A stretch of 64,000 nucleotides of DNA from Sulfurospirillaceae bacterium. Its GTDB lineage: Bacteria > Campylobacterota > Campylobacteria > Campylobacterales > Sulfurospirillaceae. The notes below the pieces were generated by a model. It made no database searches. It had not been told where the DNA came from and saw nothing but the letters and a program-made list of their open reading frames with translations. Within the stretch, counting starts at the first letter, position 1. Each line of letters starts with the position of its first letter. Below are positions 45,219-56,163 of the stretch, in pieces. The position numbers and the translations under genes were made by a program. Location of the stretch: contig JAWVXD010000002.1 of the NCBI GenBank assembly GCA_033723415.1, positions 160,001-224,000 on the forward strand, written 5' to 3'.

Positions 45219-45341
45219 ATGAAACAATCATGGAAAGCAGACGCATACGCGCAAAATTCCAAATGACAAGCCATCTGGGTAGAAGAGTTGATATAAAAAA
45301 TCAATTTACAAAAAAATGAAACCATATTGGATATCGGATAC
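45219..45341 (+). pseudogene. 5' remnant of class I SAM methyltransferase (Tam-like)
   Basis: MKQSWKADAYAQNSK*QAIWVEELI*KINLQKNETILDIGY; stops at 45264 and 45294; breaks off in motif I. Confidence 0.75.
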
Positions 45342-45562
45342 AGCTATATAAGAGATACACAAAAGAGCAATGTCATGATTGCAGTTTTTTGCTCTTTGCG
45401 CACATGTTCGCTTTATGCTTTTACAAGTATGCATATGATATTCTTTCTTTAAGACCTATTCAACGCAGCAATCAGTAAAAATGCCACTTGGAAAGAATCA
45501 TGACAAAAAAAAATGATATAGAACAAAATTTCAAAGAAACATTTCAAGAAATTAATCATGTC

Positions 45563-45709
45563 ATGCAACAATATCCTTTATTGATCCCTTCGTCAACTAA
45601 AAAACAAAAAATCGCTGATCACCTCTCTTCTATTAACAACTTTATCACCTCCCAAGTTAAAAAACTAAAAGAGCATAAAAAAGGGCTAATACACCAGCTT
45701 TTTCCATAA
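45563..45709 (+). pseudogene. hsdS: 3' remnant of type I R-M specificity subunit (within ORF 45488-45709)
   Basis: LLIPSSTKKQKIADHLSSINNFITSQVKKLKEHKKGLIHQLFP matches the HsdS C-terminal conserved helix. Confidence 0.8.
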
Positions 45710-45758
45710 AAAGAGGTAAAATAAAAATGGCAAAATTAAATCAAACAAAGGAGAACAA

Positions 45759-46742
45759 ATGAAACTGGATTCAATTATTATACATGAGATAAAAAAAGAG
45801 GCGAATACCACAAATACCGCTACTTTATACATATCTAATGTGACATTAGATGCAACTAATGAATATGTATTAAATATTGTTACTTCTTTGGAAGAGTCTT
45901 TTTCAAAAAAAACACTCAAGAGAGCTAAATTTTCCGATGATGGTTTTAAAGAGGATTTTCAAGATTATAGTTCTATTGATATTGTAAATTTTTCAGATAT
46001 TTTAACAAGAAAGTTAAAAAATAAAATTGATGGTATTTCTCCAGCAAAAGGTGGGTATCTTGTATTTGCCAGATATACAACAACACAAGACTTCTTAGCG
46101 ATTTTTTTAGTAAGAAATACGGAAGGTTCTAAACTTATCCCAAGTGGCGGAAGTTGGAATTTAGACTCTACACAATATTTAGATGTTGAACATTTTGCAA
46201 TGGGTGCAAAAATTAATTTATCAATTTTAAATAGTGACTCAGATGATAGATATATATCTTTAGTTCGAGGTAATACAGATATTTCAAGTTACTTTGAAGC
46301 ATGGATTGGATTAGATGATCCAAAGCAAGAAAATAAAGATGCACAAGCTTTATTCAATATATCAAACCACATAGAATTACCAGATGGAATGACAAGAGAT
46401 AGTTTAAAAAGAATTATTTTTGATTATGCAAAAAGTAGCACGGGAAAAGTTGTTAATTTAAGAGACCTAAGTACATATATCTTTCAAGATGAAAATTATA
46501 TTACAAACTACTGTGAAACAAATAATATAGATATTGATGGAGAATTTAAATTAGCTGGTGCAAATTTAAGCAGATTTTATAAAGTTTCTGTTAAGGCAAA
46601 TAATATTGAACTGACTTTTCCAAGAAGTAGTTTTAATCCCGACGAAATTGAAATAATAGATGAACAAGTTGTTATTCATTCTACAGAGTTAGCACAACGA
46701 ATTCAAAACGCTATTGATGCTGATATTGATATAGAGCAATGA
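45759..46742 (+). CDS. YejK/NdpA-like nucleoid-associated protein
   Basis: IIIHEIKK N-terminus, AKGGYLVFARY, LDVEHFAMGAKINLS, YISLVRG...ISSYF; 327 aa; AAGGAG RBS. Confidence 0.8.
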   Translation: MKLDSIIIHEIKKEANTTNTATLYISNVTLDATNEYVLNIVTSLEESFSKKTLKRAKFSDDGFKEDFQDYSSIDIVNFSDILTRKLKNKIDGISPAKGGYLVFARYTTTQDFLAIFLVRNTEGSKLIPSGGSWNLDSTQYLDVEHFAMGAKINLSILNSDSDDRYISLVRGNTDISSYFEAWIGLDDPKQENKDAQALFNISNHIELPDGMTRDSLKRIIFDYAKSSTGKVVNLRDLSTYIFQDENYITNYCETNNIDIDGEFKLAGANLSRFYKVSVKANNIELTFPRSSFNPDEIEIIDEQVVIHSTELAQRIQNAIDADIDIEQ

Positions 46743-47992
46743 AAATAGAAGCTATAAACAGACTAGTTGATTTATTAGCTAGTTGCACAGATGAAGCAGC
46801 GGATGAATTAACCTTTGTATCTAATGATTTAAAAAATCACAAAACATTATTAACTGAGTTAAACATTCATAGTGAAGAGTTGGCAGAGGGAATCAGTATA
46901 AACTTAGCTAATCAAGCTATTAATATTTATAAAACAAAAAAAGATTGTATAAAACATTTTCAGGGAAATATTGAAAAACCTATAGTAATTCTTGCGGATA
47001 AAATTATTTATGATAAAGATACTGATAATGTCTTTTTTGAAAATTTAATATATTCACTAAAAATTAGAACACTAATAGAAGAAAGAGAGATAGTTTCATT
47101 TCATGATAAAATAAATAGAAGTTTTATTTTATTGTCTGAATCAAATGGAAAGCTCAAATTGGGTTATGAAAGTAAACCATTAGAATTTTACAACGAAGAA
47201 CATAATTTAAAAAATTTATTTAAATTGCTATTAAAAAAATTAGACAAAGATGAGTTTGCTTCATTCTTTAGAGATAATATTATTAAAAGTGTAGAGGATG
47301 AAGAAGATATAAAAAGAAGATATATCACTTTTCTTACTCGTTTAAATAACACAATAGAGAAAACTGAACGGGAGTATAGTCTGTTTATTAATAAATTTTC
47401 TTTTGAAAAATTTAATTCAGAACTCAAAAAAGAAAAAGAAAAATATATAAAAAACATTCAAGATAATTTATCAGAGTTTTTATCAAAAGTAAATGCTTTG
47501 CCTGTTCAATTTGGTGTTTATATTTTATTGATTTTTAGGTTTGAACACGAGATAATTCCTTTAATCGGGACTGTAGTTTTAATTATTGCTTGGAGTTCTT
47601 TTAGTTTTTTATCTCTTCAAACAATGAAAAAGACAATAAATTTTATAGAGAGAAAATTTGAAAATGTATTTGAGCAAATTGCTCAAGAATCAGGAATTAA
47701 TGAAAAGATATTAACACAAGATAAGAAAGAAGTTGATAATAAAATTAGTGATATTAGACAAATGATATATTGGTATCAAGGTATTGTTGTTGTTTTTAGC
47801 TTAATTTTTATACTTTTTAGTGGTTCAAACATTTATCAACAGTATAAAAAGAATAATGATAAAAACCCTCTCTTAAATGAAAAAATAAATAAATATGATG
47901 GTATTAAAGGCACAATGGAGAATAACCAATCTCAATCTAATAAAGTCATTATTCACAAAGATACCAATAACGAAAGAGAAGTTCATAAATGA
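46739..47992 (+). CDS. hypothetical protein: soluble N-domain, coiled coil, about 3 C-terminal TM segments
   Basis: 417 aa intact ORF; ATGA overlap with upstream gene. Confidence 0.8.
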   Translation: MKIEAINRLVDLLASCTDEAADELTFVSNDLKNHKTLLTELNIHSEELAEGISINLANQAINIYKTKKDCIKHFQGNIEKPIVILADKIIYDKDTDNVFFENLIYSLKIRTLIEEREIVSFHDKINRSFILLSESNGKLKLGYESKPLEFYNEEHNLKNLFKLLLKKLDKDEFASFFRDNIIKSVEDEEDIKRRYITFLTRLNNTIEKTEREYSLFINKFSFEKFNSELKKEKEKYIKNIQDNLSEFLSKVNALPVQFGVYILLIFRFEHEIIPLIGTVVLIIAWSSFSFLSLQTMKKTINFIERKFENVFEQIAQESGINEKILTQDKKEVDNKISDIRQMIYWYQGIVVVFSLIFILFSGSNIYQQYKKNNDKNPLLNEKINKYDGIKGTMENNQSQSNKVIIHKDTNNEREVHK

Positions 47993-48663
47993 CTAATAAA
48001 GAAACAAATTATTTAAAAGTTTTAGAAGCGTTTAATAACTCAAATTTATCAGTTATTGAAACAAAATTTGGCAAGAGGTACATTTCCAAAATTATTTTTG
48101 TAATATTTTTAATTCTATCTATTAGTAGTATTTATTGTGCTAAAGAGAATAGTAGTAGTTGGATTATTATTGCACTTGGCTTAATGATGATGTTTTCTAT
48201 CTTCCTATATTTTAAACATATCAATAACAAGGTTATAAGCTATTTTGGAGAAAGTAGTAAAGCTTTTATAAAACAAAATGAAATCTATTGGCGAGCTATT
48301 AGAGCATTGATTTTTTTTGAAAATATACAAAATCAAAAGCTTGATTTAGATGAGAATATCATTATAGAAATAATTGAAAAAGAATTGAATTTAAAAAAGA
48401 TAGAAATACTCAAAACACCAGTTTTTCTAGGACTGTTGACAGTATGGGGAATGTTGATAAATAGTATTTTTGATAAGACTGAGCTATCGGTTTTGTGGAT
48501 ATTTTTCTTTATTCTTTTGATGATTACATATTTTTCTTATGGCTTAGTTTCTGTTTTAAGAACTGAAGAGTCGAAAATGAATGATCTGAAACTTTTTATT
48601 CATTGGTACAACGTGATTGCTCCTACAATTGGGAAATTCCATATTAGTGAAGAAAAAGACTAA
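47989..48663 (+). CDS. hypothetical membrane protein (2+2 TM)
   Basis: 224 aa; two pairs of hydrophobic helices; ATGA overlap. Confidence 0.78.
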   Translation: MTNKETNYLKVLEAFNNSNLSVIETKFGKRYISKIIFVIFLILSISSIYCAKENSSSWIIIALGLMMMFSIFLYFKHINNKVISYFGESSKAFIKQNEIYWRAIRALIFFENIQNQKLDLDENIIIEIIEKELNLKKIEILKTPVFLGLLTVWGMLINSIFDKTELSVLWIFFFILLMITYFSYGLVSVLRTEESKMNDLKLFIHWYNVIAPTIGKFHISEEKD

Positions 48664-49952: not shown

Positions 49953-51086
49953 ATGCACTTTTCATACAAAAACCCGACACTGATAGAATTTGGACAAGGC
50001 AAGATAGCCCGCATACAAGACCTCATACCAAAAAACAAAAGAATTCTGGTTGCCTATGGCGGCGGAAGCATAAAACGAAACGGCGTATACGATCAGGTAA
50101 AAGAAGCCCTATCCGAACACACGTGGTTTGAGTTTGGAGGTATCGAGCCAAACCCGACAAAAGAGACACTGGATAAAGCAGTCATTTTCGGAAGAGAGAA
50201 TGATGTAGATTATATATTGGCTGTCGGTGGAGGTTCTGTTCTTGATGGATCCAAATATATTGCCAATGCATTTTATTATGACGGTGATGGCTGGGACTTG
50301 TTGGAAGGCAAATACAAAGCAACAAAAGCACTAGAGATAGGTACGATACTTACACTTGCCGCAACAGGGAGTGAATCTAACAGTGGTTCGGTTGTGACAA
50401 AAAAAGAGACGAGTGAGAAAAGATTTTTCCACTCTGAACTGTCTTATCCAAAATTTTCTATTTTAGATCCAGACGTGCTAAAAAGTCTAGACGATAGACA
50501 ACTTAGTAATGGAATCATAGATGCGTTCGTGCATACTTGTGAACAGTATCTGACATATTCACATGGTGCGATGGCTCAAGATCATTATAGCGAGGGGATC
50601 CTTCGAGGGCTTATAGAGCTTTCTGCTTCTTTTGATAAAAGAGATGATCTTTGGTATGCAAACCTTATGTGGCTTGCAAATCAAGCATTGAATGGTTTGA
50701 TCGGTCTTGGTGTACCTCAAGATTGGGCGACACACTTCATTGGACATGAGCTAAGCGGACTTTATGGTATCGATCATGCAAGAACATTGGCGATCATCCA
50801 GCCAAACTTGTTAAAAGTACTTGTTAATGAAAAACAAGATAAACTTTTGCAAATGGGGAAAAACGTATGGTCTCTGGATACAAAAGATCCTAATGAGGTT
50901 ATTAATAAAATAGAAGAATTGTACAGTTCTCTTCATGTTGATCTAAAAATCTCATCATATACCGATGATACTGGTATAGAGTTGAAAGTTCTTTCTCTTT
51001 TGAAAAAGCATGGTTTTGTGAACTTTGGAGATAGAGAACTTGTCAGTACAGAGGTTGTGAAAAAGATACTTGATATGTCATTATAA
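49953..51086 (+). CDS. iron-containing NADPH alcohol/aldehyde dehydrogenase (YqhD-like)
   Basis: YGGGSIKRNG, GIEPNP, AVGGGSVLDG, DWATHFIGHEL...DHA. Confidence 0.92.
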   Translation: MHFSYKNPTLIEFGQGKIARIQDLIPKNKRILVAYGGGSIKRNGVYDQVKEALSEHTWFEFGGIEPNPTKETLDKAVIFGRENDVDYILAVGGGSVLDGSKYIANAFYYDGDGWDLLEGKYKATKALEIGTILTLAATGSESNSGSVVTKKETSEKRFFHSELSYPKFSILDPDVLKSLDDRQLSNGIIDAFVHTCEQYLTYSHGAMAQDHYSEGILRGLIELSASFDKRDDLWYANLMWLANQALNGLIGLGVPQDWATHFIGHELSGLYGIDHARTLAIIQPNLLKVLVNEKQDKLLQMGKNVWSLDTKDPNEVINKIEELYSSLHVDLKISSYTDDTGIELKVLSLLKKHGFVNFGDRELVSTEVVKKILDMSL

Positions 51087-51109
51087 ATAAGAATTTGAAA
51101 AAGAGGTGA

Positions 51110-51916
51110 ATGATGCCGGGTTTTGAATTTATCATATACTACATACTTTTAGGTTCCTTTGTCGGTGTAGCGGCGGGATTGATGGGTATCGGTGGCGGTG
51201 GTATCATCGTACCGGTTCTCACGACACTTTTTTTAATGCAAGGCGTACCGCACAATGAAGTAGTTCATTTAGCTCTTGGTACATCTATGGCGACTATCGT
51301 CATCACTTCTTTTTCTAGTCTAAGAGCTCATCACAAACGAGGTGGCGTGATCTGGGATGTTGTCAAGATGATGGCACCCGGGATCTTGCTAGGAGCTTTT
51401 TTAGCAACCTTTCTAGCTTCGATTCTCAGCTCATTTTATCTGGCTATATTCTTTTCAATCTTTATGGCTTACGTATCAATTCAAATGTTTATAAACAAAA
51501 AACCAAAACCAAGCAGAAAACTTTTGAGCTCACTCGGACAATTTATATCCGGTTCCATCATCGGACTCGTTTCTGCGCTTGTGTCAATCGGAGGGGGCTC
51601 ACTTAGCGTTCCTTATCTGATTTGGCAAAATGTCGAACTAAGAAAAGCGATAGGTACGAGTGCTGCTATAGGATTTCCACTTGCGATAAGCGGTACTATC
51701 GGATATATCATAAACGGCTGGGGTCATACAGACATGCAACATCTTGTTGTTGGATTTGTATCTTTACCGGCTTTTTTTATCATCGCATTTTGCAGTTATT
51801 TTATGGCGCCTGTTGGTGTCAAATTGACGCATATACTTCCTGTTGAGATCACCAAAAAGATCTTTGCATTGTTACTCATCACTCTAAGTATCAAGATGCT
51901 GAGTTCATTTATATAA
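51110..51916 (+). CDS. TauE/SafE sulfite exporter family protein
   Basis: GLMGIGGGGIIVP, ALGTS, IGGGSLSVP, AIGTSAA. Confidence 0.92.
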   Translation: MMPGFEFIIYYILLGSFVGVAAGLMGIGGGGIIVPVLTTLFLMQGVPHNEVVHLALGTSMATIVITSFSSLRAHHKRGGVIWDVVKMMAPGILLGAFLATFLASILSSFYLAIFFSIFMAYVSIQMFINKKPKPSRKLLSSLGQFISGSIIGLVSALVSIGGGSLSVPYLIWQNVELRKAIGTSAAIGFPLAISGTIGYIINGWGHTDMQHLVVGFVSLPAFFIIAFCSYFMAPVGVKLTHILPVEITKKIFALLLITLSIKMLSSFI

Positions 51917-55716: not shown

Positions 55717-56163
55717 TCATTTTTGATCCTGGTTCCGATAGTCTTGAGATAGTCTTTTCAAAGCTTCCAGATCATTACCTGTGATGATATCTCCTTTATT
55801 TTCGGATTCTCTAAACATTGCAATGATATCCTCTCTTGTCGTTTGTGAACTCATCATAAAATTTTTAAAAGGATAGGTTGAAAATCCACTTGTTTTATGA
55901 TTGGCTGAGCTTGTGATAAATCGCACACCATGAGCGATCTGCACAAATTTACCTATAATAAGTCGATCCAGGCTTAATTCAAATAGATAAGAAGCCAAAA
56001 TACCGGCATAATCTTCTACTTCTTCAAAATTATGGTAATATGAAAACTCACCGACACTGATACGCTGATGACTAAGAACTTCTTTGAGATGTACCGTCTG
56101 TTCAATAACAGTTCCATCAGGCATAATCATCGGATATTTTTTTTTGCTGTTCAACAGTGCCAT
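55717..56163 (-). pseudogene. CatB/Vat-related O-acetyltransferase with internal deletion
   Basis: VGEFSYY, LIIGKFVQIAHGVRFI, ANH...FSTYPF, KGD present; GNDVWIG hexapeptide block and WWDW region absent. Confidence 0.75.

Follow-up and report, generated by a model that had tools for sequence, protein, structure and literature searches.

The question raised by this locus is whether three intact genes lying between broken ones form a single, undescribed anti-phage system, as a first-pass annotation had proposed. The genes (ORF1, ORF2 and ORF3) lie in the window, by which we mean the whole 64,000-nucleotide stretch of Sulfurospirillaceae DNA that was analysed, among the following features:

45219..45337, + strand: 5' remnant of a SAM-methyltransferase-like pseudogene, with two in-frame stops
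45488..45709, + strand: 3' remnant of the type I R-M specificity gene hsdS (PADLOC Specificity_I, E 2.6e-12)
45727..45762, + strand: mini-ORF of 11 codons, recognised from the sequence and its alignment with locus L013
45759..46742, + strand: ORF1, NA37/YejK-like nucleoid-associated protein (NAP), 327 aa (Pfam PF04245, E 2.6e-33)
46739..47992, + strand: ORF2, membrane protein, 417 aa, with remote profile homology to the DS-1 partner family
47989..48663, + strand: ORF3, 4-TM protein by hydropathy, 224 aa
48700..48822, + strand: 5' remnant of rhuM (40 aa), 60% identical to the RhuM N-terminus in locus L011 (E 2.7e-12)

The layout reported earlier was confirmed: all three frames are intact and are chained by ATGA stop/start overlaps at 46739-46742 (ORF1/ORF2) and 47989-47992 (ORF2/ORF3), with the hsdS remnant as the broken gene on the left and the rhuM remnant on the right. 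The block is also more AT-rich than its neighbours, with a GC content of 26.1%, where the flanks have 38.5% and 36.9% and the genome as a whole 34.5%; values as low occurred in 0.19% of genome windows (n=4,766, overlapping, 2.9-kb). The left edge of the rearranged block is the pseudogene at 45219-45337, which shares 70% aa identity over 40 residues with a paralogue that is intact on contig C2 of G000 (L036:1409-2191) and is called methyltransferase-like from its motif as we read it. The hsdS remnant resembles the HsdS end of L013 (54%), with 89% DNA identity over 76 nt that include the RBS after it. The mini-ORF begins at the ATG that serves ORF3 in L013 and terminates where its stop overlaps the start of ORF1 in an ATGA, and in this alignment it reads as a marker of the cargo junction. 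No exact empty site turned up; the same-genus genome G013 retains the tag gene as well as the thiamine genes and has other DNA here. As for the decayed type I R-M locus in which the block had been placed, the hsdS remnant is real, but the R-M system is gone and is not decaying where it stood: no HsdS or HsdR domain was scored across the 100%-complete genome in a search that covered these two.

ORF1 carries the YejK/NdpA family signature that had been noted by eye, and it matched the structure of E. coli YejK (9BE2) at E 4e-9 over nearly its full length. A housekeeping YejK was nevertheless ruled out by several results: ORF1 reached 99.5 bits with the YejK equivalog model, whose cut-off is 341, and NA37 genes were present in seven of 60 genomes of the family and in none of 13 genomes of the genus, which marks ORF1 as non-core. 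In the tree, ORF1 fell within a clade of seven NAPs (support 99/100), every one of them paired with an ORF2-family gene, which stands apart from core YejK, that of Proteus included. When mapped by hand, residues R173, R176 and K177 of the YejK N-domain pore correspond to N172, a gap and D174 in ORF1, and these basic residues are not kept in ORF1's clade either; the C-domain pore set is kept in part, YejK K284 corresponding to K275 and R280 being shifted by one (R272). Owing to this loss in one domain and partial retention in the other, clamping of DNA by the ORF1 clade is not assured.

In the AlphaFold2 model of ORF2 (pLDDT 90), an N-terminal alpha/beta domain (about residues 1-200) leads into a long helix spanning 202-252; hydrophobic helices at 254-290 and 342-360 follow, and the tail is disordered. 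The previous count of about three TM segments was a fair one, two being clear by hydropathy (272-290 and 342-360) and the third, a short hydrophobic helix in the model (254-267), being marginal. A whole-model fold search returned generic helical-bundle matches only (residues ~220-375; best Z 14.2, to designed bundles), no family was assigned by Pfam, PADLOC or NCBIfam, the ESM Atlas held unnamed clusters only, and a tblastn search of plasmids gave nothing. The family has 406 representatives at E<=1e-3. Over the first 170 residues, 93% of 132 members carry a net negative charge (median -7), compared with 47% of 359 control proteins from the same genome as the window (median 0); ORF2 itself is mildly acidic there (net -4), as are 26% of the control proteins to an equal degree.

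Both proteins were compared with DS-1 (D390), a validated E. coli defence system found with DefensePredictor, which consists of WP_000355468.1 and WP_000150292.1 (NCBIfam NF053868/NF053869; PMC13092281). One locus in our set, L020, is DS-1 itself, since both of its proteins (P0223/P0222) scored above the cut-offs of these models and matched the D390 sequences of Table S8 by eye; the annotation of its sister locus, L021, carries the accession WP_000355468.1. Direct comparison gave little, with 20% identity (E 3e-4) between ORF1 and the DS-1 NAP, no BLASTP similarity between ORF2 and the DS-1 partner, and no match of either protein to the DS-1 models at E<=1, while the positive controls P0223/P0222 passed. 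In profile searches, by contrast, a profile of 132 ORF2-family members run against 2,310 sequences retrieved the DS-1 partner with an E-value of 2e-9, the best unrelated decoy reaching 0.092, and HHalign aligned the ORF2 family with the DS-1 partner family at a probability of 98.8% (E 5.5e-17) over 344 columns, that is, full length, and with the single DS-1 partner protein at 94.4%. In the reverse direction, with a cut-off of E<1e-3, a DS-1-family profile recovered 21 of 207 ORF2 homologues and none of 207 reversed controls. Judged by these profiles, ORF1-ORF2 and DS-1 are remotely homologous; with this homology and the layout of type II PANGU, described below, the idea that the cassette is undescribed does not hold for the pair.

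The proposed coupling of a DNA-binding-type protein to a membrane effector is well borne out by other genomes. Among the loci found by ORF2-family queries and with upstream DNA present, 12 of 14 have an NA37 gene immediately upstream, the two others being a 3' fragment (L054) and a weak partial match to a dCTP-deaminase-like protein (L038); broken copies of the pair were seen in L010 and L021. The partner of the L012 NAP (340 aa, TM) was not counted as an ORF2 homologue (HHalign 1% and 9.5%), and the plasmid records NZ_LR743510, NZ_MN310372, NZ_CP104448, NZ_CP093857 and CP002527, which also gave matches, stand outside the loci read. The defence link claimed for the cassette also stood, with an R-M or defence-candidate neighbour in six of seven close-clade loci, a raw count from loci that are related and not independent. 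In L011 the order is ORF1-ORF2 followed by rhuM, and its NAP is 88% identical to ORF1, whereas its ORF2 is only 55% identical, indicating faster divergence of ORF2.

These contexts bear on whether the block is active at all. It could be mobile cargo that is silent or has no defensive role, such as a nucleoid or maintenance module left behind from a mobile element when the R-M locus was lost, as would accord with a promoter/terminator scan at chance level (22 promoter-like sites versus 22.6 expected), the deletion of the upstream hsd genes and the YejK-like plasmid genes that have no ORF2-type partner (L050, L051). We regard this as very unlikely, given three intact frames between three broken neighbours, a homologous pair, DS-1, that is experimentally defensive (PMC13092281), and relatives that occupy R-M loci and, in a prophage, the slot flanked by holin and Q.

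The mode of action can be approached through type II PANGU. A preprint (bioRxiv 10.64898/2026.04.06.716658) defines PANGU as a two-gene system and describes type II, with Pag2A and Pag2B of PANGU-Ecu, as a YejK-like NAP plus an effector that has an acidic N-terminal soluble domain, the DNA-mimic DMK domain, and a C-terminal TM region. According to the same text, the nucleoid protein is freed as phage nucleases degrade the chromosome and then binds the acidic domain of the effector; in PANGU-Ecu both genes are required, the NAP binds DMK with a KD of 19 nM and relocates upon T4 infection, and loss of denA results in escape. ORF1 is likely the sensor, the counterpart of Pag2A and DS-1 protein 1, and ORF2 likely the effector, the counterpart of Pag2B and DS-1 protein 2. 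This likeness to type II PANGU is a probable one, drawn from architecture and from DS-1 as a proxy; that DS-1 is itself a type II PANGU is what we infer.

ORF3 stands apart from the pair. Its four hydrophobic segments (32-50, 57-75, 143-161 and 171-189) agree with the 2+2 TM segments first assigned to it, and its structure model is of low confidence (pLDDT 58). PADLOC, Pfam and NCBIfam contained no family for it, the ESM Atlas gave unnamed clusters only, and no relatives were found in a scan of viral contigs; an origin as an ORF2 paralogue was rejected, ORF3 showing no resemblance to that family. ORF3 did not occur at any of the pair loci, in any of five pair-bearing genomes or in G369, and, conversely, the pair was present in none of five distinct informative ORF3 contexts. 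Its relatives lie beside HsdS/RhuM/PrrC, GajB or SIR2, and in three of the five contexts it directly adjoins HsdS, GajB or SIR2. In L013 the order is hsdS, ORF3, rhuM, with the junction, hsdS end and RBS as in the window. In the loci read, ORF3 is thus a separately mobile module independent of the pair, and the three genes do not behave as the one unit they had been taken for.

The possibility that all three genes nonetheless work as one system, with ORF3 recruited in this lineage to amplify the pair or to serve as its second membrane subunit, is suggested by the ATGA coupling of ORF2 and ORF3. Furthermore, in three cases a close ORF2 homologue and a close ORF3 homologue from Logan agree in contig number and in the length of the longest contig (3668, 3222 and 3252), an indirect sign of a conserved string; the junction may therefore persist in relatives at about 80% identity, and the three contig sets probably carry both genes, which speaks against full independence of ORF3. 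The preprint text likewise describes a SLATT gene added in PANGU Cluster 1 and some type I operons, and one or more conserved hypothetical genes, its wording allowing two, downstream of the NAP in the PANGU-like Cluster 3 (bioRxiv 10.64898/2026.04.06.716658). We consider such a system unlikely, because in none of the loci read is the pair accompanied by ORF3, not even in L011 with its closely similar NAP, and ORF3 lacks the pair in all five informative contexts; moreover, it closely abuts unrelated upstream genes, namely HsdS in L013 and a 466-aa gene in L014, so the tight spacing appears generic for the slot. Comparably unlikely is a combined scheme in which ORF3 represents an undescribed anti-phage family of four-helix membrane proteins, mobile among defence islands (HsdS/PrrC, GajB, SIR2), and is coupled here to a type II PANGU pair, one released nucleoid sensor driving a two-protein membrane effector. 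As a stand-alone new defence gene, ORF3 is a tentative candidate, called undescribed from the absence of family matches.

The reading that we prefer, at a probability of roughly two in three, is that ORF1 and ORF2 form a pair remotely homologous to DS-1, likely a type II PANGU abortive-infection system, and that ORF3 is a separately mobile gene, likely a defence cargo in its own right, that occupies the same slot between hsdS and rhuM. Since the pair is distantly related to an anti-phage system, it likely kills the cell once a phage shreds its DNA. The mechanism is transferred from PANGU-Ecu onto what was computed here, namely the family of ORF1, the remote homology of ORF2, their conserved pairing, patchy distribution and defence-linked contexts and, for the loci read, the independence of ORF3. 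ORF1 would sit on the chromosome as a non-specifically bound dimer and come free as phage nucleases break down the host DNA; it would then bind the acidic N-terminal domain of membrane-anchored ORF2, whose long helical bundle and TM helices would rearrange. This rearrangement may compromise the inner membrane, and the damage would halt the infected cell before new phages have matured.

A pair with another trigger would also be anti-phage. The membrane subunit of Kiwa senses a phage protein or membrane event; ORF2 might do the same, with ORF1 acting on phage DNA, and both the missing N-domain pore residues in ORF1's clade and the faster divergence of ORF2, as a phage-facing sensor might show, would suit this. 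Such a trigger is improbable in our estimate, as the acidity of the N-terminus across the ORF2 family fits the PANGU model, PADLOC gave no Kiwa match, and the sole type II system studied, as far as the preprint text goes, shows NAP relocation, effector binding and denA escape (bioRxiv 10.64898/2026.04.06.716658).

With the preferred reading, the design of a nucleoid sensor plus a membrane effector extends to a distant clade, mostly from Campylobacterota, that profile homology ties to DS-1. ORF1 offers a natural variant lacking the YejK N-domain pore residues, useful for understanding how type II PANGU effectors activate and kill, and an unnamed 4-TM family in defence-island contexts emerges as a side product.

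Among known systems, Kiwa, a membrane protein with a DNA-binding partner in type I R-M loci, had served as the initial analogy. It is alike in these two respects and differs in the soluble partner, here NA37; PADLOC-DB 2.0 presumably includes Kiwa models, and membership was rejected, as no PADLOC model matched ORF1, ORF2 or ORF3 at E<=1 and Pfam gave no Kiwa match for any of them. Housekeeping YejK/NdpA of E. coli (PDB 9BE2; PMC11229321) is of one family with ORF1 along nearly the whole length, but ORF1 lies far under the equivalog cut-off, has its own clade, is missing from most relatives and has lost the N-domain pore triad. DS-1 likewise has an NA37 gene followed directly by a gene for a membrane protein of ~400 aa, and is AT-rich cargo in a defence hotspot. 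The relationship is remote at the sequence level; in addition, the DS-1 NAP (391 aa) has an N-terminal zinc-finger extension that ORF1 lacks and belongs to a separate clade, and DS-1 lies in a prophage, whereas ORF1-ORF2 occupy the hsdS-rhuM slot with ORF3 behind them.

Type II PANGU shares with the locus a YejK-like NAP gene, an adjacent gene, ATGA-coupled here, for an effector with TM segments in its C-terminal part, a patchy spread and a link to R-M or other defence genes. Its effector has an acidic N-terminus; the ORF2 family tends to be net negative there, and ORF2 itself is mildly so. It comprises two genes, whereas here a coupled ORF3 follows the pair, which is two-gene in all relatives read; its NAP clamps DNA via pore-lining basic residues, of which ORF1 lacks R173/R176/K177 of YejK and keeps K284 (as K275), with R280 shifted by one (R272); and Campylobacterota is not among the phyla named in the preprint text. 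The PANGU-like Cluster 3, if two genes follow its NAP, would resemble ORF1-ORF2-ORF3 by the preprint's description, but ORF3 is not conserved with the NAP, and the TM layout of ORF2 is that given for Cluster 2. ORF1-ORF2 are a distant relative of a known defence design and not a new kind of system.

The three genes that the first-pass annotation had placed in an AT-rich block were found at the same positions, each joined to the next by the ATGA overlap described, and a broken gene lies at the left edge of this cassette:

45759-46742, + strand: ORF1, NA37/YejK-like protein, 327 aa
46739-47992, + strand: ORF2, membrane protein, 417 aa
47989-48663, + strand: ORF3, membrane protein with four hydrophobic segments, 224 aa
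45219-45337: methyltransferase-like gene, 5' remnant with two in-frame stops

The low GC content noted earlier was confirmed, at 26.1% compared to 38.5% and 36.9% in the flanks and 34.5% genome-wide, and only 0.19% of 4,766 overlapping genome windows of the same size were as AT-rich. The proposed flanking remnants were likewise recovered, namely an hsdS tail on the left (PADLOC E 2.6e-12) and a rhuM head on the right (60% to RhuM of locus L011). The methyltransferase-like remnant, which has an intact counterpart of 70% identity (a paralogue at about 50408-51190 of G000:C2), is a third broken gene at the cassette. Since neither HsdS nor HsdR domains gave a scoring match anywhere in the genome, the R-M system appears to be lost, with the cargo slot between hsdS and rhuM alone left. 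The nearest homologues with a named source belong to Sulfurospirillum, Sulfuricurvum, Arcobacter and Sulfurimonas. Elsewhere in the window, a short acetyltransferase-like ORF (148 aa, 55717-56163) looked truncated by eye.

Assignment of ORF1 to the YejK/NdpA family also held (NA37, E 2.6e-33), and the protein is homologous to the clamp structure solved for E. coli YejK (E 4e-9). A housekeeping YejK was ruled out, with ORF1 scoring 99.5 against a 341-bit cut-off; among other genomes, NA37 was present in 7 of 60 from the family and in none of 13 from the genus. In a 22-row tree whose deeper branches are weak, ORF1 fell within a 99/100 clade of seven nucleoid-associated proteins (NAPs), every one paired with an ORF2-family gene, apart from the core YejK of Proteus and from the clade of DS-1, an E. 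coli anti-phage system. A separate, long-branched NA37 clade comprised genes from genus g5 of the window's family that stand alone and lack an ORF2-family partner (L043, L044, L045 and L047). PMC11229321 gives R173, R176 and K177 as N-domain pore residues of E. coli YejK; by hand count on alignments, these correspond to N172, a gap and D174 in ORF1, while K284 corresponds to K275 and a basic residue lies one position off R280. DNA clamping by ORF1 is therefore plausible but not assured.

Among 14 loci found with ORF2-family queries and having upstream DNA, an NA37 gene lay directly upstream in 12 (L005, L006, L007, L008, L010, L011, L020, L021, L037, L053, L055 and L056; broken copies in L010 and L021), which are not independent, since L020 and L021 are one system; this count excludes L009, which is cut upstream, the pairs L018, L019 and L052, chosen through ORF1, and five plasmid matches. 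The exceptions were L054, a 3' fragment, and L038, where the C-terminal part of a dCTP-deaminase-like protein weakly matched the ORF2 profile. This gene belongs to a lower-GC string (L038:3040-7809) with adenylosuccinate-synthetase-like and nucleoside-kinase-like genes, assigned by eye except for the dCTP deaminase, that looks like a nucleotide-modifying defence cluster. Across the seven close-clade loci, the pair sits within an intact hsdM-hsdS-hsdR locus in L006, after hsdS in L005, ahead of a type II R-M pair in L008, after a restriction-enzyme-like gene in L037 and beside rhuM in L010 and L011, the latter also carrying PDC-M11A; in L007, no recognised defence neighbour was seen. Silent or non-defensive cargo is a very improbable reading of the window's block, for which a promoter scan at chance level speaks. 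At L012:7420-9454, an NA37 gene is coupled to a 340-aa TM protein, with an integrase alongside; the TM protein had no significant similarity to the ORF2 or DS-1 profiles, and the two are possibly a more distant PANGU-like pair.

ORF2 matched no named family in the Pfam, PADLOC or NCBIfam libraries. Its family is broad (406 representatives at E<=1e-3) and patchily distributed, occurring in 1 of 400 other phylum genomes and in 3 of 400 from the class of genome G455, including G455 itself and one weak partial match. In the structural model (pLDDT 90), an alpha/beta and helical domain at the N-terminus is followed by a long helix at 202-252 and by two hydrophobic helices, at 254-267 and 272-290; the chain then comes back through a helix that contains a TM segment (342-360) and ends in a disordered tail. 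Generic helical bundles were the only matches when known folds were searched. The N-terminal region carried a net negative charge in 93% of 132 family members versus 47% of 359 controls, the charge of ORF2 itself (-4) being unremarkable.

DS-1, validated by DefensePredictor, consists of a YejK-domain protein and a 404-aa partner, according to PMC13092281. We located it in E. coli record L020, where both proteins pass NF053868/NF053869; the annotation of E. coli record L021 splits the partner gene in two (L021:2627-3834). The ORF2-family profile matched the DS-1 partner at E 2e-9 (top decoy 0.092), profile-profile comparison of both families gave 98.8% (E 5.5e-17, 344 columns), and, when 207 ORF2 homologues were searched in the opposite direction, 21 matched, compared with 0 of 207 after sequence reversal. 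The relation is nonetheless remote, since BLASTP found no similarity between ORF2 and the DS-1 partner and the window's proteins did not match NF053868/NF053869.

In the preprint that describes it, type II PANGU is a YejK-like NAP with an effector that has an acidic DNA-mimic domain at its N-terminus and a TM region at its C-terminus; PANGU-Ecu requires both genes, its NAP departs the nucleoid upon T4 infection and binds the acidic domain with a KD of 19 nM, and T4 escapes through denA loss (10.64898/2026.04.06.716658). By analogy, ORF1 and ORF2 probably form a type II PANGU-like abortive-infection system, with ORF3 as a separate, probably defensive cargo, a reading to which we assign a probability of about two-thirds. 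By transfer from PANGU-Ecu, release of ORF1 would let it bind ORF2 at the putative acidic domain. Failure of the membrane is the proposed next step. That the two form a defence pair with another trigger seems quite unlikely.

ORF3 matched no family in Pfam, PADLOC or NCBIfam, and comparison revealed no likeness to ORF2. Besides itself, 13 database homologues were found, and relatives occurred in 5 of 353 genomes of one survey; its profile matched in no pair locus, in 0 of 5 pair-bearing genomes (of unstated completeness) and in 0 of 60 other family genomes, G369 among them. Five distinct informative contexts were obtained, none with the NAP pair, L016 and L061 being uninformative.

Contexts of ORF3 relatives
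Context 1 (L013, L058): hsdS, ORF3, rhuM, PrrC
Context 2 (L014, L057): two unknown AT-rich genes, ORF3, rhuM fragment
Context 3 (L059/L062): GajB, ORF3
Context 4 (L060): HTH/IrrE, ORF3, SIR2
Context 5 (L015): ORF3 alone amid other genes

The window's hsdS end and ribosome-binding site have matching counterparts in L013, where they run directly into ORF3, whereas the order in L011 is ORF1-ORF2-rhuM. Two cargoes are thus combined as a mosaic in the single slot of the window. Three ORF2/ORF3 homologue pairs (~80% identity), with equal contig counts and equal sizes of the longest contig, count against full independence of ORF3; a three-part system, in which ORF3 works with ORF1 and ORF2, is still unlikely, given the five contexts.

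Other features accompany the ORF3 relatives. L013 and L058 have the same ORF3 and RhuM (RhuM 100% identical) after HsdS alleles just 41% identical, evidence of specificity-subunit exchange beside a fixed cargo. The AT-rich coupled genes at L014:4996-7997 (likewise in L057), of 533 and 466 aa and directly upstream of the ORF3 relative, had no Pfam, PADLOC or NCBIfam match and are a possible undescribed defence pair. At L060:387-3367, the HTH/IrrE-peptidase gene, the ORF3 relative (31%) and the SIR2 gene form a tight string; HerA is the usual partner of this SIR2 type.

The main value of the locus lies in a divergent pair clade and in ORF3 as a candidate defence gene. Judging from its layout, DS-1 would be a member of type II PANGU. 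ORF1 shares YejK-like family membership with the NAPs of both systems, and the ORF2 family shares a C-terminal TM region with the type II PANGU effector, its N-terminal region being net acidic in most members; the pair is distantly related to already known systems and not a separate kind.
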